Below, piece by piece: positions 2,565-50,820 of a stretch of DNA of 64,000 nt. Position numbers and translations under genes: made by a program. Source of the DNA: an uncultured Bacillales bacterium (GTDB lineage: Bacteria > Bacillota_I > Bacilli_A > RFN20 > CAG-449); contig CAMPBT010000001.1 of NCBI GenBank assembly GCA_946641515.1, positions 168,512-232,511 of the forward strand. The letters are read 5' to 3'. The notes beneath the pieces were generated by a model that saw only the letters and a program-made list of their open reading frames with translations, made no database searches and was not told the origin of the DNA. Every line of letters starts with the position of its first letter. Positions within the stretch are counted from its first letter, which is position 1.

Positions 2565-3140
2565 ATGAAAATACTAGAAGAAAGAATTCTTAAAGATGGG
2601 GTAATCTTAAACAATGAAATATTAAAAGTTGATTCATTCATTAATCATCAAATTGATGTTAAATTACTTCGTGATATCTCAGCTTATATCAGTGCACATT
2701 TTAAAGGTGTTAATAAAATTGTCACTATTGAAACTAGCGGTATTCCTTTTGCTCTTGGAGTTGCTCAACAGTTTGATGATTGCCCAGTAGTTTTTGCGAA
2801 AAAATCAAAGAGCGCCATTGTTGATGAGAATAATATTTATACTGCAGAAGTAAAATCATTTACTAGAAAAACTACTTCAACAATATCAATCGATAAAAGA
2901 TTCTTATCAAAAGGTGATAAAGTTCTTATTGTTGATGATTTCTTAGCAGAAGGTAATGCAGGTCTTGCCTTAGCATCAATTATTAAAGAAGCAGGAGTAG
3001 AATTAGTAGGATTTGCAACAGTTATCGAAAAAGTATTTCAAGGTGGTAGAGAACGTCTTGAAAGACAAGGTATTAAAGTTGTCGCATGTGCATCTATTGA
3101 AGCATTTATAGACAATAAACCAGTATTTGTAGAAAAATAG
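2565..3140 (+). CDS. xpt: Xanthine phosphoribosyltransferase
   Basis: 191 aa with full-length similarity to Xpt (SGIPFALGVA, VLIVDDFLAEGNAG PRPP-binding loop). RBS GAGGAG upstream. Confidence 0.9.
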   Translation: MKILEERILKDGVILNNEILKVDSFINHQIDVKLLRDISAYISAHFKGVNKIVTIETSGIPFALGVAQQFDDCPVVFAKKSKSAIVDENNIYTAEVKSFTRKTTSTISIDKRFLSKGDKVLIVDDFLAEGNAGLALASIIKEAGVELVGFATVIEKVFQGGRERLERQGIKVVACASIEAFIDNKPVFVEK

Positions 3141-3151
3141 ATTTTAAAAAG

Positions 3152-3182
3152 GTTATGAAATCGCTTTCATAACTTTTTTTAT
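3152..3182 (+). terminator. Rho-independent terminator after xpt
   Basis: GTTATGAAA-TCGC-TTTCATAAC hairpin followed by TTTTTTT. Confidence 0.7.
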
Positions 3183-3244
3183 CAAAAAGTGTTTAATTTT
3201 TATCGATAACAAGATAATAATAAAATTGTCGATATGATAAGTCG

Positions 3245-3316
3245 GCATTTTCGTATAATTACCCTAATTGGTGGGAAAGTCTCTACGCTTGACCGTAATC
3301 AAGCACTACGAAATAA
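3245..3316 (+). ncRNA. Purine riboswitch aptamer (guanine-type, C at the specificity position), in the leader of the BMP-family nucleoside ABC transporter operon
   Basis: The sequence is UUCGUA-UAAUU-[ACCC UAAUUGG UGGG]-AAGUCUCUAC-[GCUUGA CCGUAA UCAAGC]-AC-UACGAA. P1 (UUCGUA/UACGAA), P2 and P3 stems are present, with J2-3 AGUCUCUAC (consensus AGUUUCUACC), an L3 CCGUAA loop and J3-1 AC (C = guanine/2'-dG class). It aligns element-by-element with the B. subtilis xpt and add aptamers. Confidence 0.75.
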
Positions 3317-3399
3317 AGAACTTATTCATAATTTTAAGGCTTTATTTATAATGGCTTTCTTTTTCTGATTTTGGTATTCAAAATAAGGGAGAGAAAAAT

Positions 3400-4680: not shown

Positions 4681-6318
4681 ATGGTAGCAAAGAATAATAC
4701 AAAAAATATTAATATTACTTTTGAAAATATCTCTAAATCTTTTGGAGTAGTTAAAGCTAACCAAAATGTTAATTTAGATATTTATGAAGGCGAAATTTTA
4801 GCGTTACTTGGAGAAAATGGCTCTGGTAAAACTACTTTGATGAATATGCTTTCAGGCATCTATTATCCTGATGAAGGAAACATATATGTCAAAGGAGAGA
4901 AAGTAAACATTGCTTCACCTAAAGATGCATTCTCTTATCATATTGGAATGATTCATCAACATTTTAAATTAATTGATGTTTTTACTTCTTTAGAGAATAT
5001 TGTTTTAGGCATTGAATCTAATGTTTCTAAGAAACAAAAGTGGTCATATTTCTTTAAGAACTTCTATAAGAAAAAAGAAGATAGAGAAACTAAATATATT
5101 GATAGAGCAAGTGTTAAAGATGCAAGACCTATCGTCCAAGAAATCTGTGATAAATATGGTTTTATCTTAGATTTAGATAAAAAAGTTTATGATATGTCAG
5201 TATCAGAAAAGCAAACTCTAGAAATTGTCAAAACTCTTTATAGAGGCGCGGATATTTTAATTCTTGATGAACCTACTGCAGTTTTAACTCCTATTGAAAT
5301 TGATAAATTATTCAATGTCTTAAGAAATATGAAAAATGATGGTAAATCAATTATCATCATTACTCATAAACTTAATGAAGTAATGGAAATCTCTGACCGT
5401 GTCGCAGTTCTTCGTAAAGGAGAATGCATTGGTTCAGTTGTGACAAAGAATACTAATGAAGCAGAATTAACTGAAATGATGGTAGGTGAAAAGATTGAAC
5501 TTAACATCAAAAGAGATGAACCTGTTAATCCTGTCGATAGATTAATTGTTAAGGATCTTGAATGTAAGAATGAAGATGGTAGAGAAATTCTTCATGATGT
5601 TAGTTTTACTGCTAGAAGTGGTGAAATCCTTGGTATTGCAGGTATTTCTGGCTCTGGACAAAAAGAACTTTTAGAAACTATTGCAGGCTTAATTAAAGGC
5701 TCTTCTGGTGAAATTACTTATATTAACCCAAAGACTGATAAAGAAGTTAATTTAAGATCTAAAAGCCCTGCTCAAATTAGAGATTTAGGTGTTAGATTAT
5801 CTTTCGTTCCTGAAGATCGACTTGGAATGGGACTTGTAGGTAACATGGACTTAGTTGATAATATGATGCTTCGTTCTTATCGTAAGAGCAAATCCCATTT
5901 AGTAGATAGAAAAAAACCAACAGAACTCGCTAATGAAGTCGTTAATGAACTTGGGGTAAGTACACCAAGTATTCATACATCAGTTAGAAAATTATCTGGT
6001 GGTAACGTTCAAAAAGTTTTAGTAGGTAGAGAAATTGCTTCTCATCCTAAAGTTTTAATGGTTGCATATCCTGTTAGAGGACTTGATATTAATTCTTCAT
6101 ATCTAATCTACAATCTATTAAATGAACAAAAGAAAAAAGGTACTGCAATTATCTATGTTGGGGAAGACCTTGATGTTTTAATTGCATTGTCAGATAGAAT
6201 TTTAGTTATTGGGGACGGAGAAGTTAGAGGTTTAGTAGATGCAAGAAAGACTACTAAACGTGAAATTGGTTTATTAATGACTAAGAAGAATGAAGGAGGC
6301 TTAGATGATGACAAATAA
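4681..6318 (+). CDS. ABC transporter ATP-binding protein with duplicated ATPase domains (nucleoside/sugar type)
   Basis: Two Walker A motifs (GENGSGKTT, GISGSGQKE), signature LSGGNVQK and Walker B ILILDEPT. It is 545 aa, as in the two-domain ATPases of BMP-type transporters. Confidence 0.9.
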   Translation: MVAKNNTKNINITFENISKSFGVVKANQNVNLDIYEGEILALLGENGSGKTTLMNMLSGIYYPDEGNIYVKGEKVNIASPKDAFSYHIGMIHQHFKLIDVFTSLENIVLGIESNVSKKQKWSYFFKNFYKKKEDRETKYIDRASVKDARPIVQEICDKYGFILDLDKKVYDMSVSEKQTLEIVKTLYRGADILILDEPTAVLTPIEIDKLFNVLRNMKNDGKSIIIITHKLNEVMEISDRVAVLRKGECIGSVVTKNTNEAELTEMMVGEKIELNIKRDEPVNPVDRLIVKDLECKNEDGREILHDVSFTARSGEILGIAGISGSGQKELLETIAGLIKGSSGEITYINPKTDKEVNLRSKSPAQIRDLGVRLSFVPEDRLGMGLVGNMDLVDNMMLRSYRKSKSHLVDRKKPTELANEVVNELGVSTPSIHTSVRKLSGGNVQKVLVGREIASHPKVLMVAYPVRGLDINSSYLIYNLLNEQKKKGTAIIYVGEDLDVLIALSDRILVIGDGEVRGLVDARKTTKREIGLLMTKKNEGGLDDDK

Positions 6319-19743: not shown

Positions 19744-19900
19744 GTGATGAAGAAAATGGACCTATTTTTGGTCCATTTTTTGTAGAAAAGTAAGAAACTA
19801 TATTTTATAATATGTAACATAGACATATAGATGCGATTATAATATGCCAAAGAAATTGGATTTATTTTTTAATTACATTTTATATCGGGGAGGAATAATT

Positions 19901-21676
19901 ATGGACCAACAGACATTAATTACTATTATAATAGCTTCTGTTTTTCTTGCAGCGTTAGTTGTATTTTTTGTTATTAATCATTTTAAAAACAAAAAGAATA
20001 AAGTTGAAGAAGTTAAAAATAGTGATAACTTAGTTGAACAAAATAAATACACTAAAAAATTAGCAAGACAAGAAAGAGCAAAGAAAAGAAGAGAACAAGA
20101 ACTTAATAAAATAGAAGAAGTTAAGGAAGTAAAAGAAGAACCAGTAGTGAGATATGATGAAGAAGTTGTTTCTTTAGATTCTATTGTTAATGATGAAATA
20201 AAAAAAGAACCTACACTTGTCGAAGAAGAAAAAGTTGTCGAAGTAGTTGAAGAAGATAAAGATGATGAAGAAGTAGAAGAAAAAGTTGTCATTTATGATG
20301 AAAAGACAAATAAGAAATTTCAAATTAGATATAACAAATCTTTAGAAGCTAAATTGATTCTTGGTGATAGAACATTAAAAGGTTATTATTCAGATGTTAA
20401 AAATTGTTTAATGAGCTTTGATGTTAAAAATAGACTTTCTTGGAAACATGAAACATTTAAGTCAGGAAGAAAGACTTTAGCAATCTTACAGGTAAGAGGT
20501 AAGACATTATGTTTATATCTTGCTCTTGATCCTAAAAAATATGAAGGTACTAAATATTTAGTAGAAGATGTTTCTTCTAAAAAAGAAGATACTCCTTCAT
20601 TATTTAGAATTAAATCAGACCGTAAAGTTGAATACGCAAAAGATTTAATCCGTGACGTAATGAAAGAATATGGTTTAGAAGAAAAAGAAATTACTAATTT
20701 AGATTATGCGAAAGATTTTAAAGTTGATACTTTAGAACATTTAATTGAAAGAGGATTAGTAAAAGAAAATAAAGTAGAAGTTTCTTTAAATACTCCTCTT
20801 TCAGAACATCCAAATATTGATGTAGCACCTTTTGGCTATAGATATAGAAAATCCTTTACTGCAAAAATTATTCAAGCAGAATCTTCTACTAAATCTTACT
20901 ATTCAGAAATTAAGAAAGCTTTACTTAGTTATGAAAAGATTTCTTCAAGAATTTCTTGGGGACATGAATCATTTAAAAGAGGTAGAGTACCACTTGCGTT
21001 ACTTGAAGTAAGAGGTAAAACATTATGCTTATATTTAAATATGGATCCTAAACTCCAAGATTCTAAATATCATGTTGAAGATGTTTCATCTAAGAAAGAA
21101 GATACTCCAACATTAATTAGAATTAAGACAGATAGAAAATTAAAATATTCATTAGAATTAATTAATAAATTAATGACTGAACTTAAAGTTGAAGAAGGTG
21201 AAGTTATTAATCATAACTATGCTTTAGATTATCCTTTTGAAGAAAATGAGCCATTAATTGAAAGAGGCTTAATCAAGGCTTATGAAGTTAAAAATCCTAA
21301 ACCAGTAGAAGAAAAGAAAGTTGTAAGAGAAGAAAAAATTAAAGTAGTTAAGAAAGTTGAAGCTTCTGAAGCTAATAAACTTGTTTCTGATAATACTGCT
21401 GAAAGAAAACTTCGTTATGTAGATGTAAAACAAAATCCTACTAAAAAAGCAATTATTAATATTGATGTACTTGCAAAATATTTTGAAAACGGAGAAGTAG
21501 TTGATTTAAAGGCGATTAAAGAAAGAATTCCAGGCTACAAGAAGGTTACATACATTAAGGTTTTAGGTAGAGGAATGCTTGATAAAAATCTAAAAGTTAT
21601 CGCAGATGATTATTCTCCTCTTGCAGTAAAAATGATTCTTTTATTAGGTGGAGAACCTTATATAACTACAAAATAA
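19901..21676 (+). CDS. Membrane-anchored protein with a K/E-rich linker, an internal tandem duplication of a ~165-aa domain and a ribosomal uL15-like C-terminal domain
   Basis: The real start is ATG 19901 (MDQQTLITIIIASVF, a TM helix) behind GGGGAGG. The repeats at residues ~140-300 and ~310-470 share W(K/G)HE(T/S)FK(S/R)GR...LA(I/L)L(Q/E)VRGKTLCLYL...DPK...Y(L/H)VEDVSSKKEDTP(S/T)L(F/I)RIK(S/T)DRK. The C-terminus (YIKVLGRGMLDKNLKVIADDYSPLAVKMILLLGGEPY) aligns to the uL15 C-terminal block [32 protein letters not shown]. Confidence 0.55.
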   Translation: MDQQTLITIIIASVFLAALVVFFVINHFKNKKNKVEEVKNSDNLVEQNKYTKKLARQERAKKRREQELNKIEEVKEVKEEPVVRYDEEVVSLDSIVNDEIKKEPTLVEEEKVVEVVEEDKDDEEVEEKVVIYDEKTNKKFQIRYNKSLEAKLILGDRTLKGYYSDVKNCLMSFDVKNRLSWKHETFKSGRKTLAILQVRGKTLCLYLALDPKKYEGTKYLVEDVSSKKEDTPSLFRIKSDRKVEYAKDLIRDVMKEYGLEEKEITNLDYAKDFKVDTLEHLIERGLVKENKVEVSLNTPLSEHPNIDVAPFGYRYRKSFTAKIIQAESSTKSYYSEIKKALLSYEKISSRISWGHESFKRGRVPLALLEVRGKTLCLYLNMDPKLQDSKYHVEDVSSKKEDTPTLIRIKTDRKLKYSLELINKLMTELKVEEGEVINHNYALDYPFEENEPLIERGLIKAYEVKNPKPVEEKKVVREEKIKVVKKVEASEANKLVSDNTAERKLRYVDVKQNPTKKAIINIDVLAKYFENGEVVDLKAIKERIPGYKKVTYIKVLGRGMLDKNLKVIADDYSPLAVKMILLLGGEPYITTK

Positions 21677-28997: not shown

Positions 28998-29118
28998 AAC
29001 TTGTTCTTCAGGGTTATGTGAAATTCATTCCCGGAGGTATACCCCTCGAGCTCATAAGAGCATGAACCTGTGCAATTCAGGTGGCGACAGTAAAGGCTGG
29101 ATGAAAGAAGAGCAATAT
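28998..29118 (+). ncRNA. FMN riboswitch (RFN element) aptamer
   Basis: P1 UCUUC/GAAGA, then GGGUUAUGUGAAAUUCAUUCCCGGAGGUAUACCCCUCGAGCUCAUAAGAGCAUGAACCUGUGCAAUUCAGGUGGCGACAGUAAAGGCUGGAUGAAAGAAGAG. This matches the RFN consensus blocks (GUGAAAUUC, CCGGCGGUA, GCGAGC, GCCGACAGUnAAAGUCUGGAUGnnAGAAG). The GC content is locally elevated. Confidence 0.85.
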
Positions 29119-38517: not shown

Positions 38518-38523
38518 AGTTGT

Positions 38524-38706
38524 GTCTAGAAGGTCATTATGCGTTTCCTACATTTTGTTTTCGGGAATCGTTTCCATCACTGTGGTGTTGAAGGCCGTCA
38601 CATTAAGTTAGGCGGAATCCTAAAGCAGTGAAATGATGCCCACTTAGTAAGGATAGGAATATCCTTAGGCTTTCTGGACATTTTATTATGTTTAGGAGAA
38701 ATATAC
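38524..38706 (+). ncRNA. Relatively GC-rich, structured 5' leader of tkt (candidate cis-regulatory RNA, class not recognised)
   Basis: The composition (GGCGGAAUCC, GAAGGCCGUCAC) contrasts with the flanking AT-rich DNA. It contains hairpins GGAA-UCGU-UUCC and AAGGAUA-GGAA-UAUCCUU and a possible long-range CACUG/CAGUG pairing. Confidence 0.3.
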
Positions 38707-45472: not shown

Positions 45473-46453
45473 TTATAGATTGATATCTAAATATTCTTTA
45501 ATTAATGGAATCTCTACTTTTTTAGCCTTTTCTTGAGCTTCTAGAGCAGTTTCTCCACTTATGCCAATAACTTTGTCACCCCAAAAAGAATCGTTAATTG
45601 TTGTGCTTCCTTCTTCAAAATAATCATTCGCGTATAGTACTGAAGAAATTAATTCGTTATTTTCATATTTGATGATTGAAGGAACGTATCCGTCTTTAAA
45701 GAAATTTATTTTATATTTAGCTTTCCATTCTTTCCAATCTTCTTTAGATAAAGTTGATCTAATACCTGCTACTTCAAATCTATTTAAGATTTTTTTTGCA
45801 GTGATTAAATAATTATCTAAGAAATTATCATTAAATGATTTACAATCAGGACATTTTCTCCAACTATATTCAATGATAGATGAAGAAGAAATTAATGAAT
45901 CTAAATAGGTAGTAGTATTTAAAGATAAAGATTGCATAGTAACTTTATCATTATATTTATAATCTACTAAATCATTTACCACATTGTAATTAGAAGAATT
46001 AATTCTACTATTTAGATTGTTATATAGAGTAGATGAAGATGTGTACATGTTTGTAGAATATTCTATTTCATCAACAATCTTTCCTTCATCAAAAAATAGA
46101 AGAGTTGCAGATGAAACTTTTCCTTTTAATTTATAGTCTTCATCTTCAGATAATAAAGAGACTGTTTTTTGATATTTATCTTGTTCAATCCAGTTAATTA
46201 TATATTTAGTATCCTTAATATAATTTATAAGTGGATCTTTAATAAATTCACATGCAGAACATCCGTCTTCTCCAATGACAAGAACCATATCATCTTGCGC
46301 TAAAATTTTGTCGTATAGTTCATTGCTACTTGTATAAATAAATGATTTAACTTGAGTAGATGAATCAATAGTAATGTTATAGTTAGAAGAAGAGCATGAA
46401 GAAAATAATGATGGAAGTAATAAACTTAAGACAAATAAATTTCTTTTTTTCAT
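45473..46453 (-). CDS. Lipoprotein with two thioredoxin-like CxxC motifs (putative extracytoplasmic thiol-disulfide oxidoreductase)
   Basis: Signal peptide with lipobox LFSSC, plus the motifs GEDGCSACEF and WRKCPDCKSF spaced about 130 aa apart. Confidence 0.55.
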   Translation of the reverse strand: MKKRNLFVLSLLLPSLFSSCSSSNYNITIDSSTQVKSFIYTSSNELYDKILAQDDMVLVIGEDGCSACEFIKDPLINYIKDTKYIINWIEQDKYQKTVSLLSEDEDYKLKGKVSSATLLFFDEGKIVDEIEYSTNMYTSSSTLYNNLNSRINSSNYNVVNDLVDYKYNDKVTMQSLSLNTTTYLDSLISSSSIIEYSWRKCPDCKSFNDNFLDNYLITAKKILNRFEVAGIRSTLSKEDWKEWKAKYKINFFKDGYVPSIIKYENNELISSVLYANDYFEEGSTTINDSFWGDKVIGISGETALEAQEKAKKVEIPLIKEYLDINL

Positions 46454-46686
46454 AATTTTCTCCTTTGTTTCATTATATCATTCGTAAGACTATATAAAAA
46501 TAAAATATTACAAAAATATTCTTTCCTAAAAATGTATTGAATAATCTTAAAAAAATGCCAAAATTGAGACGTTTTCAAATGGTTTTTGAGATTAAATAAA
46601 AACATTCAAAAAACTTTTGAAATAGGCTTTTCTTTTCAAAAAAAATCGTAGAAGATATGGGTATCTTACTATTAAGGGGGAAACTT

Positions 46687-47076
46687 ATGGAAAACACAAC
46701 CAAATACAATAACCGCATTATTAAGCAAATTGTTGAGGACTATCGAAAGGCATATTCTGTAATGTTAAGAAACGGGAACTTATCTATGGCAGAATTTTTC
46801 CTGAACGATTCAAACGGAAAAACAGATATGAGAGAAATTCTTGAACACCTTCAAGATGTAAATATCTGTGAAGAAGAGAAGGTAATTTTACAGATTATTT
46901 TCTGCTTATCAATTATGGATGACACAGGTAGAGAAATTATCTGGAAAGAATTCTTTAATAAGAGTAAAACTACTTCAAAGATTCCTTGGTGGGAAGGAAT
47001 ATATTCTCGTTCTACTTTTTATCGACTAAAAAATCAGTACGTAAAGCAGTTTATTAATTTATGCGCCGCAGCATAA
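46687..47076 (+). CDS. ArpU/sigma-70-region-4-like phage-type transcriptional regulator
   Basis: Start ATG 46687 behind AAGGGGG. The C-terminal HTH-like block is EEEKVILQIIFCLS...STFYRLKNQYVKQFINL. Length about 130 aa. Confidence 0.5.
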   Translation: MENTTKYNNRIIKQIVEDYRKAYSVMLRNGNLSMAEFFLNDSNGKTDMREILEHLQDVNICEEEKVILQIIFCLSIMDDTGREIIWKEFFNKSKTTSKIPWWEGIYSRSTFYRLKNQYVKQFINLCAAA

Positions 47077-47945
47077 TAAGTATTTTACCTTTACTACTAT
47101 CTTTTAACGTACGAAATACTGGTTATGAATTTAGTCTTGATAAAGTAAAAATGTTTTATGAAGATAATACTTTTTACATGTATTTTCTTCCTTGTCGAGA
47201 GAATGGTAGGCTAGAATATTATCGCGTTTTTATTGATAATGACATTATTGTAGATAGAGATACAAACGATAAGTCAATTTATTTAAATTTAAATGATTAT
47301 AACGATAACTCGTCACATAGTATCTTTTACATTGAATATCTAGATGATGGTAGTTTTAACAAGATAACATTTTATTTTACTATTCCTCAAGGTGATATTT
47401 ATTTAGATAATTATTTTTATTCTTTGTCGAGTAATATTGATACTTATGGTCATTCAAACATTTATTTAGATAAAGGTCAGTATATCGCTTTTAATTCATT
47501 AGCATATGAAAATAAAGTTGATGAACATCGCTACCTAGATTTAGATAAATATGGCAATGTTTCATTTAATAATAATTATTCTTTAGGAGAAGTATATTTA
47601 AGTATAAAAAATGATAATATTTTTTCTTATTTTGATGATGAATATCTTAATTTAAATCTAGATATATATAATGACTCTTTAATCATTAATGAAAATCTTT
47701 CTTTAAATAAATATTCTAGAGAAATATATTTAGATGCATATGGTAGTTTAGATAAGATATATTTTCCTAAAGAAATGGATAAAGAAATAGTTGAAACAAT
47801 TTTTAGTATTAAGAACTTTTATGGCACTAATATTAATTTATATTTTCAAGCTTACTTTAATCTAGATAAAAGCTTATTAAATGATTATGAAATAATTATC
47901 GAAGATAAAGATTTTTTTGAATATGATTACGAGTTTCAAATATGA
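47061..47945 (+). CDS. Hypothetical secreted protein, Y/N/D-rich (island ORF 2)
   Basis: N-terminal signal-like segment RRSIISILPLLLSF and repetitive Y-x-D/N-rich sequence. It overlaps the regulator gene by 16 bp. Confidence 0.45.
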   Translation: MRRSIISILPLLLSFNVRNTGYEFSLDKVKMFYEDNTFYMYFLPCRENGRLEYYRVFIDNDIIVDRDTNDKSIYLNLNDYNDNSSHSIFYIEYLDDGSFNKITFYFTIPQGDIYLDNYFYSLSSNIDTYGHSNIYLDKGQYIAFNSLAYENKVDEHRYLDLDKYGNVSFNNNYSLGEVYLSIKNDNIFSYFDDEYLNLNLDIYNDSLIINENLSLNKYSREIYLDAYGSLDKIYFPKEMDKEIVETIFSIKNFYGTNINLYFQAYFNLDKSLLNDYEIIIEDKDFFEYDYEFQI

Positions 47946-48253
47946 TGTTTTTAATTATATTTATCCTATTTTCTTATTCTTATAATTTATCTTCAGAGTC
48001 ATTTAAGCTTTATTTATCTTCTACTATTCCAGAAATCTATGTTTTAAGCCTCGACAACGAAGAAAAGAGTATCGATGAGGATTTGTTCGTTAATACTTCA
48101 AATGAGATTATACGTTCTTATAATTCTAAAGAAATAACTAATATAAAAACTTATTATTCATTTAATGGGTTAGTAGTAAATTTTAAAATTACCTATAATA
48201 TCGTTTTTTATTCTTACCAATATAATAAGGAGATAAAAATAAATGAAAAGTAA
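47942..48253 (+). CDS. Hypothetical small protein with an N-terminal TM/signal segment (island ORF 3)
   Basis: 103 aa with a 4-bp ATGA-type overlap with ORF 2. Confidence 0.4.
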   Translation: MMFLIIFILFSYSYNLSSESFKLYLSSTIPEIYVLSLDNEEKSIDEDLFVNTSNEIIRSYNSKEITNIKTYYSFNGLVVNFKITYNIVFYSYQYNKEIKINEK

Positions 48254-49112
48254 ATTAACAAGTTTGTTCATCTTACTTTCTTCAAGTATTGTCTTTTGTT
48301 CTTATAAGAAATGGATCTGCTTATTAATATCTTTAATTATCATCGTCTTAATTATTTGTTCTATTCCAAATAATAAATTTTTGGATTTAAAGAATAATTA
48401 TTTATTACGAATTGATAGTTTAGAAAATAAAGAAGATTTGATTCGTTTTACGTTAGGATATGATGAAAGTAAAAGTTATGAAGAAAATACTTTAATATTT
48501 CAAAGCAAGTACAAAAATAAAATTGAAAAAGATTTCTTTCTTTATTTAAATAAATGCAAGAACCTAAATGATATTAAAACAGTCTTATTTGTTTATAAGA
48601 ATTATGGAGAATTGAATATTAATAAATTTATATGTTATGGCCTATTTTTAGGAACATATTTAATCTTAATTAGATTCTTTCCTTTCTATTTAAATTTATT
48701 AGATTTCTATTTTAAGATTAATGCAGTTTATTTAATGTTATTACTTATTCTAACTTATAAAGATTTATATTATTTACCTGGAAAATTTAAATTGTTTAAT
48801 GATTTTTATTATTCATCGTTATTATCTTTAATTGCAGAAAATAAAAAGGAATCTTTTAAAGAGAATGTAAAAAGATTTTGTAAGTATAATAAGATTTATA
48901 AAAAAGTTGAAGAAGATTTTGAAAACGGAAATATAGGGAATTATAAATTAAGTAAAATTAAGATGAGTAAGATATCCTCATTATTTGATCTTTATACTAA
49001 TGATAATTTTATTGAACCTGTTGAAGATAAATATTCTTGGTACGTTATTCTAAATGAATATTCTTTATACGTCTTTGCTTTAATTGTTGTTATTAAAGGA
49101 ATATTATTATGA
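48243..49112 (+). CDS. Hypothetical polytopic membrane protein (island ORF 4)
   Basis: 289 aa with several TM helices and an 11-bp overlap with ORF 3. Confidence 0.45.
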   Translation: MKSKLTSLFILLSSSIVFCSYKKWICLLISLIIIVLIICSIPNNKFLDLKNNYLLRIDSLENKEDLIRFTLGYDESKSYEENTLIFQSKYKNKIEKDFFLYLNKCKNLNDIKTVLFVYKNYGELNINKFICYGLFLGTYLILIRFFPFYLNLLDFYFKINAVYLMLLLILTYKDLYYLPGKFKLFNDFYYSSLLSLIAENKKESFKENVKRFCKYNKIYKKVEEDFENGNIGNYKLSKIKMSKISSLFDLYTNDNFIEPVEDKYSWYVILNEYSLYVFALIVVIKGILL

Positions 49113-49420
49113 AATTAAAAATCATATTAATGATAGAAATGATTTTAGTAATGACAACTAATTTAAAAATCAAAACTATTAATAATTATGAGAAAACTAA
49201 AAGTGAACTGGAATATGCTTCTAGTCAAATCTATATTTCATTTTTAAAATATTCGAAAAATAATTCTTATGTAATTACTTATTTAAAATCCCAAGAAATT
49301 GATATTTTTAACGAAGAGATTACTTCTTCATCTTATCGTTATACATTACAAAAAAAATACTTCTCTTATGAAAAGAATAAAGAATTACTCCTAACTTTAG
49401 AAAAGTATTTTACATATTAA
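49109..49420 (+). CDS. Hypothetical small membrane-anchored protein (island ORF 5)
   Basis: 103 aa with an N-terminal TM helix. It has a 4-bp overlap with ORF 4 and ends where the convergent fpg::coaE gene ends. Confidence 0.4.
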   Translation: MKLKIILMIEMILVMTTNLKIKTINNYEKTKSELEYASSQIYISFLKYSKNNSYVITYLKSQEIDIFNEEITSSSYRYTLQKKYFSYEKNKELLLTLEKYFTY

Positions 49421-50820
49421 GAATTTAGAATTAATAAATATAATTTATCAACATTCATGCGTAAATCAAGAAGTGAATAGTTGTTATCAATTAAATATGT
49501 ACACTTTTTAGCGTTCTTATCAAATTGAGAAGATTCATTGAGTTTTAAATCTTTTGCAACATTGAGTGATTTACGAGCGTTTAAATGATTAATCTGAGTT
49601 AATGAAGAAGCTTGTACTCCAATAATGACATCAAAGAGATTTTCAAAACCTGCTTCAAATAATAAAGGAACTTCTACTACAACCATTTTTTCATTCATGT
49701 GAGAAGAAATAAATGATTCAATTTTAGCGCGGACTAGAGGATGAACTAACTCTTCTAGTTCTTTCTTTTTATTTGGATTTAAATTGATGACGTTTTTAAT
49801 ATATCCTTTGGAGATTGATAAATCATCATTCAAGACTTCAGGAGAGAACATCTCAATTAATTTCTTTTTGAATGCTAATTCTTTATAGAGGTTAGTTACA
49901 ATTTCATCAGAAGAGATTGTAGGGCAACCTTTTTCTTTAAATAATTTAGTAACCGTTGATTTGCCAGAAGCAATTTTACCAGTAATACCGATAACTAGCG
50001 CGACATTTTGGCAATGAGGACAATAAGTTGTGCCTCTTCCTTTAATTATTGCTTTACGCATTGTTGAAGAACAAACTGGACATTTTTTTCCTTCTTTACC
50101 ATAAGCAAGAAGTTTAGTTTGGAACATTCCATCTACTCCTTTAGCAGGATGGTAAGTAGCAATAGTTGATCCACCTGATTTAATAGCATCATTTAATGTT
50201 TCTACTGATGCTTTTAAAATATCTTCACATTCTTTTAATGTTAAAGTATTGGCTTTTTTGAAGGGATTAATTTTTGTTTTAAAACAAACTTCATCAGCAT
50301 AGATATTACCAAGTCCTGTCATAATAGTTTGATCTAAAAGTGCGGCTTTAATTTCAACTTTTTTATTTTTAAATGCTTTATGTAAATAAGAAGCATCTTT
50401 AATTTCAAAAGGCTCCGGCCCAAGTTTAGCGATTTCTTCAAATTCATTTACTTTTGTAGTTGGAGTTAAATACATAATGCCGAATTTTCTTACATCTTCA
50501 TAACATAATTTAGAACCATTTTCTAAAGTGAAAATTACGCGAGTGTATTTAGATAATTCTTCATTAATTTCACGAAGAAAATATTTACCTTCCATTCTTA
50601 AATGGGAAATAATAGTATAACCATTATCTAAATTAATTAATAAATATTTGCCTCTTCTTCCAAAGGAAGAAATAGTAGATGAAGTTACTTTATTAATGAA
50701 TTCATCTAAAGGCGATTTAATCATTCTTTCATAAAGAACTTCTACTTTGACAATCTTCTTATTAACGTAGTTTGCTTCTAAGGTTCTTCTAACAGTTTCT
50801 ACTTCAGGTAATTCAGGCAT
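49417..50820 (-). CDS. Bifunctional formamidopyrimidine-DNA glycosylase / dephospho-CoA kinase (Fpg-CoaE fusion)
   Basis: The N-terminus MPELPEVETVRR is the catalytic Pro2/Glu3 of Fpg, with the H2TH domain and zinc finger CPVC...CPHC. The same frame then runs on into the CoaE P-loop VIGITGKIASGKST and the rest of a ~195-aa dephospho-CoA kinase. Total length 467 aa. Confidence 0.8.
   Translation of the reverse strand: MPELPEVETVRRTLEANYVNKKIVKVEVLYERMIKSPLDEFINKVTSSTISSFGRRGKYLLINLDNGYTIISHLRMEGKYFLREINEELSKYTRVIFTLENGSKLCYEDVRKFGIMYLTPTTKVNEFEEIAKLGPEPFEIKDASYLHKAFKNKKVEIKAALLDQTIMTGLGNIYADEVCFKTKINPFKKANTLTLKECEDILKASVETLNDAIKSGGSTIATYHPAKGVDGMFQTKLLAYGKEGKKCPVCSSTMRKAIIKGRGTTYCPHCQNVALVIGITGKIASGKSTVTKLFKEKGCPTISSDEIVTNLYKELAFKKKLIEMFSPEVLNDDLSISKGYIKNVINLNPNKKKELEELVHPLVRAKIESFISSHMNEKMVVVEVPLLFEAGFENLFDVIIGVQASSLTQINHLNARKSLNVAKDLKLNESSQFDKNAKKCTYLIDNNYSLLDLRMNVDKLYLLILNS

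Follow-up and report, generated by a model that had tools for sequence, protein, structure and literature searches.

A five-gene envelope operon headed by an MG284/MPN403-family protein in an uncultured Bacillales bacterium: a possible remnant of a Tad-like type IV filament operon

Genes of the unit and their conservation

We analyzed five genes, g1 to g5, that lie together on the forward strand (46687–49420) of a 64-kb window of DNA from an uncultured Bacillales bacterium (GenBank assembly GCA_946641515.1, contig CAMPBT010000001.1, positions 168,512 to 232,511). The window is the whole stretch that was analyzed; positions refer to it unless another locus is named, and we call the five genes the unit. 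A first-pass annotation, made from the sequence letters alone, had described five same-strand genes forming one tightly coupled unit, and the open reading frames (ORFs), their coordinates and their overlaps of 4–16 nt proved to be as it described. The features, with product sizes in amino acids (aa), are:

46564..46592, + strand: TTGAGAC-N15-TTGAGAT block, ~95–120 nt upstream of g1; promoter-like or operator-like
46687..47076, + strand: g1, 129 aa; MG284/MPN403-family DNA-binding protein with a predicted sigma-region-4-like, ArpU-related C-terminal helix-turn-helix; presumed activator of the operon
47061..47945, + strand: g2, 294 aa; exported, Y/N/D-rich protein with a signal-peptide-like N-terminus; putative counterpart of the second gene in ATPase-containing operons
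47942..48253, + strand: g3, 103 aa; short N-terminal hydrophobic segment; matches a minor-pilin-like gene by size and position
48243..49112, + strand: g4, 289 aa; all-helical polytopic protein; possible fused or reduced counterpart of two platform-like proteins encoded after the ATPase gene
49109..49420, + strand: g5, 103 aa; one N-terminal transmembrane anchor; putative counterpart of the minor-pilin-like protein encoded after two membrane proteins

Successive genes overlap by 16, 4, 11 and 4 nt (g1/g2, g2/g3, g3/g4 and g4/g5), and the stop of g5 shares 4 nt with the stop of the convergent gene fpg-coaE. No terminator-like site was found within the unit. The start of g1 was placed at the ATG at 46687, which has a strong ribosome-binding site (AAGGGGG) and agrees with the starts of its homologues; 46657 is an alternative start. 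Ribosome-binding sites were moderate for g4 and g5 and absent from g2 and g3, consistent with translational coupling in the unit. Hydrophobic segments numbered about five in g4 and one, N-terminal, in g5, and the N-termini of g2 and g3 were short and signal-peptide-like. These counts agree with the earlier description of g3 to g5 as a small transmembrane or signal protein, a polytopic protein and a transmembrane-anchored protein. For g2, the signal-peptide-like N-terminus and the richness in tyrosine, asparagine and aspartate also stood (12% Y, 11% N, 11% D), but the word ‘repetitive’ did not: tandem- and dispersed-repeat scans revealed trivial AT-rich micro-repeats only. Apart from these, the Rfam, tRNA, tandem-repeat and dispersed-repeat scans returned nothing in the unit.

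Core genes flank the unit as first stated: genes for a PedC-like lipoprotein and for a CNNM transporter lie to one side, and the convergent genes fpg-coaE, polA and dnaE lie to the other. We compared the locus with loci from relatives, which are designated by L-numbers (LNNN_n is the n-th gene there); L001–L010 are strain variants from other rumen metagenomes. Locus L011 contained all five genes in an identical overlapping layout, and the identities for g1 to g5 were 61, 36, 42, 43 and 47%. The site is shared as well: L011 (g1 61% identical) and L017/L018 (g1 ~32–33%) both have the unit converging on fpg-coaE/polA/dnaE. Among the strain variants, the ratio of nonsynonymous to synonymous polymorphism (pN/pS) was 0.11 for g2, 0.14 for g4 and 0.03 for g5, in the same range as that of the neighbours pnp, polA and fpg-coaE (0.07–0.38). 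Thus, the strain variants of the unit show purifying selection. We concluded that all five genes are real, because layout and sequence are kept in L011 and pN/pS is as low as in the housekeeping neighbours. Strain-level synonymous polymorphism (pS) in g4 and g5 (48243–49420) was 0.12–0.13 versus 0.01–0.05 in neighbours, again with low pN/pS.

The GC content of the unit was 22.6%, versus 30.5% for the rest of the window, which bears out the earlier impression of markedly A+T-rich DNA. The deficit was confined to codon positions 1 and 2, where the GC fraction of the unit (0.236 versus 0.378 ± 0.044) fell below that of every other gene in the window. In contrast, synonymous sites were ordinary: GC at third positions (GC3) was 0.162 versus 0.173 ± 0.035, and the synonymous-codon fit of the unit was low-normal (z ~ −1.6, fourth lowest of 43). 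The operons of L016, L017, L019, L021 and L025, which are reduced forms described below, were always 4.5–9 GC points under their own flanks, and those flanks span 24%–44% GC (the extremes being a unit of 15% against 24% and one of 39% against 44%). A recurrent deficit of this kind fits fast-evolving, weakly constrained proteins under AT-biased mutation, and foreign DNA is disfavoured because the deficit tracks host GC in each lineage with the reduced module. For genome scans this suggests a caution: low GC that is limited to codon positions 1 and 2 in AT-rich genomes signifies fast-evolving proteins and not imported DNA.

The regulator and its family

The g1 protein matched the NCBIfam model NF045770, ‘MG284/MPN403 family protein’, with 62.7 bits (cutoff 37.3, E 2.3e-17). 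This family is named for MG_284 of Mycoplasma genitalium and MPN403 of M. pneumoniae. The match to the ArpU model TIGR01637 was weak (23 bits, below the cutoff of 43.1, E 7e-5), as were those to RinA, also below cutoff, and to phrog_248. Members of the family are proteins of ~110–170 aa that end in a WW...YSRSTYYRLK...F motif (WW-x3-YSRSTYYRLK), and g1 carries WWEGIYSRSTFYRLKNQYVKQF near its C-terminus, the end of which lies 7 residues short of the end of the protein. Residues W101, W102, S109, Y112 and R113 of g1 were invariant or near-invariant in family alignments. By both cutoff and motif, then, g1 is a member of the family.

An exhaustive search with a hidden Markov model of 1.84 billion representative proteins yielded just 92 relatives of g1 at E ≤ 1e-3, which makes this a small family. 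NF045770 was matched by all of the aligned relatives (53/53), ArpU weakly by 20/53 and RinA by 2/53. The family is chromosomal and is found only in Mollicutes and in Bacilli of the Erysipelotrichia type; Beduini massiliensis (Erysipelotrichaceae, WP_041138937) has one annotated cluster. The fold of g1 is predicted to be a sigma-region-4-like helix-turn-helix, which places it with Sigma-70 region 4. Searching the PDB with the g1 model in Foldseek returned nothing significant, and the top entries of a BFVD search, phage ‘transcriptional regulator’ and ‘Sigma70 r4’ proteins, were likewise not significant. There was no match to Sigma70_r2 or to any other sigma model of Pfam in this 129-aa protein, that is, no sigma region 2, the part that binds core polymerase and recognizes the −10 element. 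The first-pass annotation had called g1 a sigma-region-4/ArpU-like regulator; the fold and the relationship stand, but the protein belongs to a named chromosomal family that is only remote kin of the phage activators. Similarly, its statement that the system had not been described applies to the operon, since our literature search found no paper on it or on MG284/MPN403 itself, but the regulator family already bears a curated name. That family was named without an assigned role, and here its member heads a five-gene envelope operon.

The phage late-operon activators ArpU, RinA and Ltr (Quiles-Puchalt et al. 2013, PMC3753634; Ferrer et al. 2011, PMC3152322) resemble g1 in being small, in having a sigma-region-4-like helix-turn-helix and in being encoded by the first gene of the presumed target operon. 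Unlike them, g1 sits at a non-phage locus with no terminase, morphogenesis or lysis genes downstream. By analogy with these activators, g1 most likely activates the operon’s own promoter.

The block at 46564–46592 may be that promoter, an operator, or both. Nothing else is well conserved when the intergenic region is aligned with that of L011, whose version of the block is TTGATAC-N15-TTGAAAT at equal spacing. The heptamer TTGAGAY occurs 9 times on both strands of the 64 kb, versus 29.5 expected, and two of the nine occurrences are the ones here, 22 nt apart. An alternative parse of the block gives a −35 element TTGAGA, a 17-nt spacer and a −10 element TGAGAT.

Shorter and longer operons in relatives

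Word-index protein searches with g1 and g4 recovered only the same species and one relative (L011), a scan of a genome collection found one locus, and an initial metagenome scan found nothing. The first-pass annotation could place none of the four downstream products in a known family, and g2 to g5 indeed had no match in Pfam, NCBIfam, PHROGs, PADLOC or the PDB; this includes a search of the PDB with a g2 profile. Orthologues of g3 were detected in L011 (L011_3, 42% identity) and L017 (L017_3, blastp 9e-4), which also matched each other (2.6e-5), and g4 was 43% identical to P0005/L011_4. We surveyed the operons by tracing g1 homologues into their contigs. The following gene orders were observed, with sizes in aa:

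L017/L018, at the fpg-coaE site: g1 homologue, then 254, 101, 337 and 108
L025, ahead of tyrS: g1 homologue, then 283, 117, 357 and 108
L019 and L021, ahead of tyrS: g1 homologue, then ~255, ~122, two membrane proteins (~218 and 189–237) and ~95
L016, in a different genomic context: g1 homologue, then 301, 99, 114 and 97
L024, L097 and L044, long form: g1 homologue, then ~340, ~131 and an ATPase of 319–365
Long form after the ATPase (the L044 contig stops inside the ATPase gene): polytopic proteins of ~230 and ~222, a protein of 113–123, a tiny pilin-like protein and an acyl-carrier-protein (ACP) gene
Candidate pilin, L024 11387–11620 and L097 ~4853–4990: leader nearer to archaeal-type class III signal peptides than to Flp G/XXXXEY

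A g3-like protein of equal size and layout was present in all of the related operons. The lineages form a reduction series of eight genes, six, five and the regulator alone, and most of those sampled were without the ATPase. The long form was found in three distant relatives, each with a g1 homologue at the head of the operon. Its ATPase matched Pfam T2SSE (1e-20); the nearest relatives in the PDB were archaeal GspE (2oap), VirB11, FlaI and CpaF, and in NCBIfam the VirB11 and TadA-family models (~1e-31) came before FlaI and ComGA, all under the curated cutoffs. The candidate pilin, found only in L024 and L097, is ~45–77 aa long and starts with MSE[IL]KG/Q[IL]LG, after which comes a hydrophobic stretch.

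Component by component, the long form corresponds to a Tad-like type IV filament machine, with a compact ATPase, a pair of platform proteins of the TadB/TadC kind, proteins resembling minor pilins and a pilin of Flp size. It shares with Tad (Flp, type IVc) and archaeal-type filaments an ATPase of the VirB11/TadA/FlaI class, two polytopic proteins that recall TadB and TadC, a set of two or three small proteins that recall TadE and TadF and have a hydrophobic segment at the N-terminus, and a pilin-like protein with a short leader that ends in glycine. We consider it likely that the long form is a type IV filament-like machine. From Erysipelotrichales, Tad and ComG loci of the ordinary kind have been reported (PMC12786226), but not this operon.

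Several results connect the short forms with the long one. L017_5 matched L024_7 over its full length (blastp 1.6e-8), and a profile of L024_7, L097_7 and L017_5 aligned with L025_5 in hhalign at 87.7% probability. The rare motif [YF][FL]P[KR] was found at 78–83% of the length of the g2-position proteins in the window, L011, L017, L025, L024 and L097, and was absent from all other module proteins (background frequency 1.9e-4 per residue). The gene order of L019 and L021 is that of the long form minus ATPase and pilin. The N-terminal half of g4 aligned with the first membrane protein of L019/L021 (gene 4a; hhalign 36.6% probability, E 3.7e-4), and its C-terminal half aligned weakly with the second membrane protein of L024/L097 (gene 4b; E 0.013). 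Window g5 aligned in register with its long-form counterpart, though not significantly (E 0.024). Across 351 group comparisons by hhalign, pairs from the same operon position outscored pairs from different positions (Mann-Whitney p 9e-9), and same-position pairs made up 13/20 of the top 20 by E-value versus 21% expected. Judged from these alignments and gene orders, the genes of the short form and the non-ATPase genes of the long form are quite likely homologous.

Interpretation of the unit

Taken together, the probable homology of the two forms and the likely filament-like nature of the long one lead us to lean, with moderate confidence, towards the unit being what is left of a Tad-like type IV filament operon that is now without its ATPase and its pilin. 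We propose that g1 would bind near its own promoter through the sigma-4-like helix-turn-helix and switch on a single g1–g5 transcript, much as the related ArpU and RinA proteins activate phage late genes. Translational coupling would then yield an envelope complex, and polytopic g4 would serve in it as the anchor for g3 and g5, both N-terminally anchored, and for the Sec-exported g2. In the window version the ATPase and pilin would have been lost, with one membrane protein in place of two, and this version, which has neither motor nor pilin, probably no longer builds a filament on its own. As speculation, the complex may persist as a membrane-anchored surface assembly, possibly for contact, adhesion or DNA exchange. 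The survey turns a set of hypothetical proteins into a testable idea, in which a type IV filament machine is decaying or has been repurposed. The MG284/MPN403 family is kept even in near-minimal mycoplasma genomes, and across mollicute-like Bacilli its gene typically heads a conserved envelope operon.

A number of observations weigh against this reading. Compared with Tad, the window operon is without ATPase, small pilin and TadZ, and it has a single membrane protein. No protein of the unit was significant against the T2SSF (Pfam), TadE/F or Flp models, and g4 had no T2SSF match. A class III prepilin cleavage motif (Gly at −1; G/XXXXEY) was not recognized in g2, g3 or g5, and the candidate pilin of L024/L097 also does without G/XXXXEY. 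The AlphaFold2 model of g4, built from a three-sequence alignment, was all-helical with a pLDDT of 47 and thus unusable, and PDB searches with profiles built from the platform-like, g2-like and g5-like families gave no match. Window g3, g4 and g5 had no significant direct match to full-operon proteins (best hhalign E 0.013–0.024), so that the proposed link between short and long forms runs by way of L017/L025 and synteny. Within the long form itself, the ATPase was as close to conjugative VirB11/TrbB models as to pilus models, and the full system could be another secretion machine. The T2SSF match of the polytopic protein L024_6, although over the full domain length, was faint (E 0.33), as was the TadF match of the 113–123-aa protein (E 0.05, L024), and neither was reproduced in Pfam and NCBIfam scans of L097 and other homologues. 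Neither the 64-kb window nor the DNA up to ~7 kb from any reduced module contained a T2SSE or other assembly ATPase, and how a filament machine would function without its motor is a puzzle. No prepilin peptidase (A24) occurred among the window proteins scanned, a scan that covers the 64 kb only. That the ATPase block was lost and not gained is presumed. Lastly, g1 homologues were also found without the module, for example at Beduini-type loci, and g1 is therefore not strictly dedicated to the operon.

Some of these points are shared by a different explanation, in which the unit is a lineage-specific envelope module unrelated to pili, g2 to g5 making up a membrane or surface complex of a separate kind under the MG284-family regulator, and the ATPase, platform and pilin genes are a separate cassette that was inserted or fused in a few lineages. 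We regard this as doubtful, though worth keeping in mind. It would account for g2 to g5 having no match in any of the databases searched, for the want of a significant match between window g3 to g5 and the full-operon proteins, and for the ATPase being missing from most of the sampled lineages. Against it, L019 and L021 keep both platform-like genes in the full order without ATPase and pilin, a state reached more easily by loss than by insertion. Moreover, proteins at the g5 and g2 positions are common to both forms, indicating that the two sets at least cooperate where both occur. A competence pseudopilus of the ComG type was rejected as an identity for the unit, as there was no ComGA or ComGB and no prepilin of the KGFTLxE type.

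Small sigma-type proteins encoded in operons with membrane proteins are common in Bacillota (SigM, SigW, SigY), and the sigma-region-4-like fold of g1 invites the comparison: g1 might be a minimal sigma-like factor that a membrane protein holds inactive until an envelope-stress signal arrives. However, g1 is without sigma region 2, no anti-sigma domain was matched in g2 to g5, and g2, g3 and g5 expose next to nothing to the cytoplasm that g1 could bind. Many relatives, in addition, have the g1 homologue standing alone beside an ACP gene. A sigma/anti-sigma unit is accordingly improbable. The first-pass annotation had preferred a horizontally acquired accessory island, with a role in surface structure, exclusion, secretion or bacteriocin immunity, set between core genes. 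Low total GC, housekeeping genes on either side and the adjoining lipoprotein, with its weak matches to bacteriocin-maturation proteins of the PedC/BrcD type, speak for such an island, but we hold it to be very improbable. Of the checks that the annotation itself had proposed, the comparison of GC and codon use with the surroundings gave host-like GC3 and synonymous codons, and the synteny search for an insertion gave the same site in L011 and L017/L018; both went largely against its reading. The unit keeps site and order in relatives down to ~33% g1 identity, and its GC deficit follows the host GC in every lineage. Hallmarks of mobility were not found either. There were no tRNA genes in the 64-kb window and no flanking repeats around the unit; the locus contained no integrase, phage structural or toxin-antitoxin genes, an absence that the annotation had reported correctly; and plasmid, viral-contig and PADLOC defence searches were negative. 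A bacteriocin-immunity unit tied to the PedC-like lipoprotein was dropped as a candidate, the PedC-like gene being unlinked to the unit in L017, L019, L021 and L025. The weak matches of g1 to ArpU, RinA and phrog_248, together with the small membrane proteins encoded downstream, could finally recall the decayed late region of a prophage, in which an ArpU-type late activator precedes holin-like or other small membrane proteins. This is scarcely credible: g2 to g5 had no PHROG match, tblastn of g1 against 50,697 phage records found no match, no family member bearing the conserved motif was found in IMG/VR, and both the deep chromosomal synteny and the purifying selection argue otherwise. We concluded that the unit is an old, vertically inherited, fast-evolving operon of mollicute-like gut and rumen Bacilli and not a recent import.

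Returning to the remnant of a Tad-like operon that we favour, the family name of g1 provides a lead into the mycoplasmas. We take the gene order in M. genitalium to be proS (MG_283), MG_284, MG_285, MG_286 and the ACP gene (MG_287). The relatives echo this order: proS was found upstream of the MG284-family gene in L023 and L103, and very often a small ACP gene came after the MG284-family gene or after the whole long operon, at the following positions:

L023 7426–7650; L028 3532–3753; L090 1415–1648; L034 1687–1902; L043 372–593: directly after the g1 homologue
L033 1169–1402: after a gap from the g1 homologue
L030 3169–3432: after a second MG284-family paralogue
L024 11707–11964; L097 5163–5321: after the whole long operon

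The paralogues of L030 stand in tandem (2359–2709 and 2809–3168; 116 and 119 aa, 38% identical) and are followed by the ACP gene and ptsI.

By locus numbering, MG_285 and MG_286 (MPN404/405) come immediately downstream of MG_284, the founding member of the family, as g2 to g5 do of g1. They differ in that a sigma-20 promoter precedes MG_285, so that these genes are not necessarily driven by MG_284. Overexpression of sigma-20 in M. genitalium induced MG_285 and MG_286 16- to 18-fold, along with recA and ruvAB, and allowed cells to exchange genes in a DNase-resistant manner (Torres-Puig et al. 2018, PMC6105099). According to the same study, the products of several regulon genes, which it does not name individually, have predicted transmembrane domains and might serve in cell contact. 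Homology of MG_285 and MG_286 to g2–g5 is a lead and not a result. Going further, the unit might be the better-preserved general form of MG_285/MG_286 (MPN404/405), that is, a motor-less Tad-like relic that is kept across Mollicutes-type Bacilli as a minimal apparatus for cell contact or DNA exchange under an MG284-family regulator. We put this forward tentatively and think it rather unlikely. If it were true, the mycoplasma link would be the first structural and evolutionary handle on DNase-resistant, sigma-20-dependent gene transfer. The sigma-20-induced neighbours of MG_284 are candidates for the same system.

Some minor observations concern the neighbours of the unit and the rest of the window. 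The gene fpg-coaE is a single fused ORF of 465–467 aa in the window (49417–50820, − strand), L011 (12706–14109) and L017 (9783–11180). Its fpg part is MutM (Fapy_DNA_glyco, H2TH and zf-FPG domains) and its coaE part is dephospho-CoA kinase, and the fusion is kept at ~33% g1 identity. The divergently oriented PedC-like gene (45473–46453, − strand) encodes a lipoprotein that has two thioredoxin-like CxxC motifs and weakly matches PedC/BrcD, a bacteriocin-maturation disulfide isomerase. This gene is the neighbour of g1 both in the window and in L011, and L102 has a PedC-like gene <5 kb from g1; in other lineages it is unlinked to the unit. Elsewhere in the window, a 610-aa ORF (19844–21676, + strand, GC 0.27) has an N-terminal hydrophobic segment and a C-terminal match to ribosomal L15/L27A (Pfam E 3.8e-7). 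Three RNA features scored above the Rfam gathering threshold:

3231–3328, + strand: purine riboswitch before an ABC-transporter lipoprotein operon
29000–29116, + strand: FMN riboswitch before the S component of an ECF transporter
38520–38684, + strand: 6S RNA gene

The source organism is probably an uncultured, mollicute-like member of the Bacilli. Its genome has ~30% GC, uses the standard code (TGA is the stop in 3/54 called genes) and contains mreB. DNA of the window was also present in sheep and cattle rumen metagenomes.

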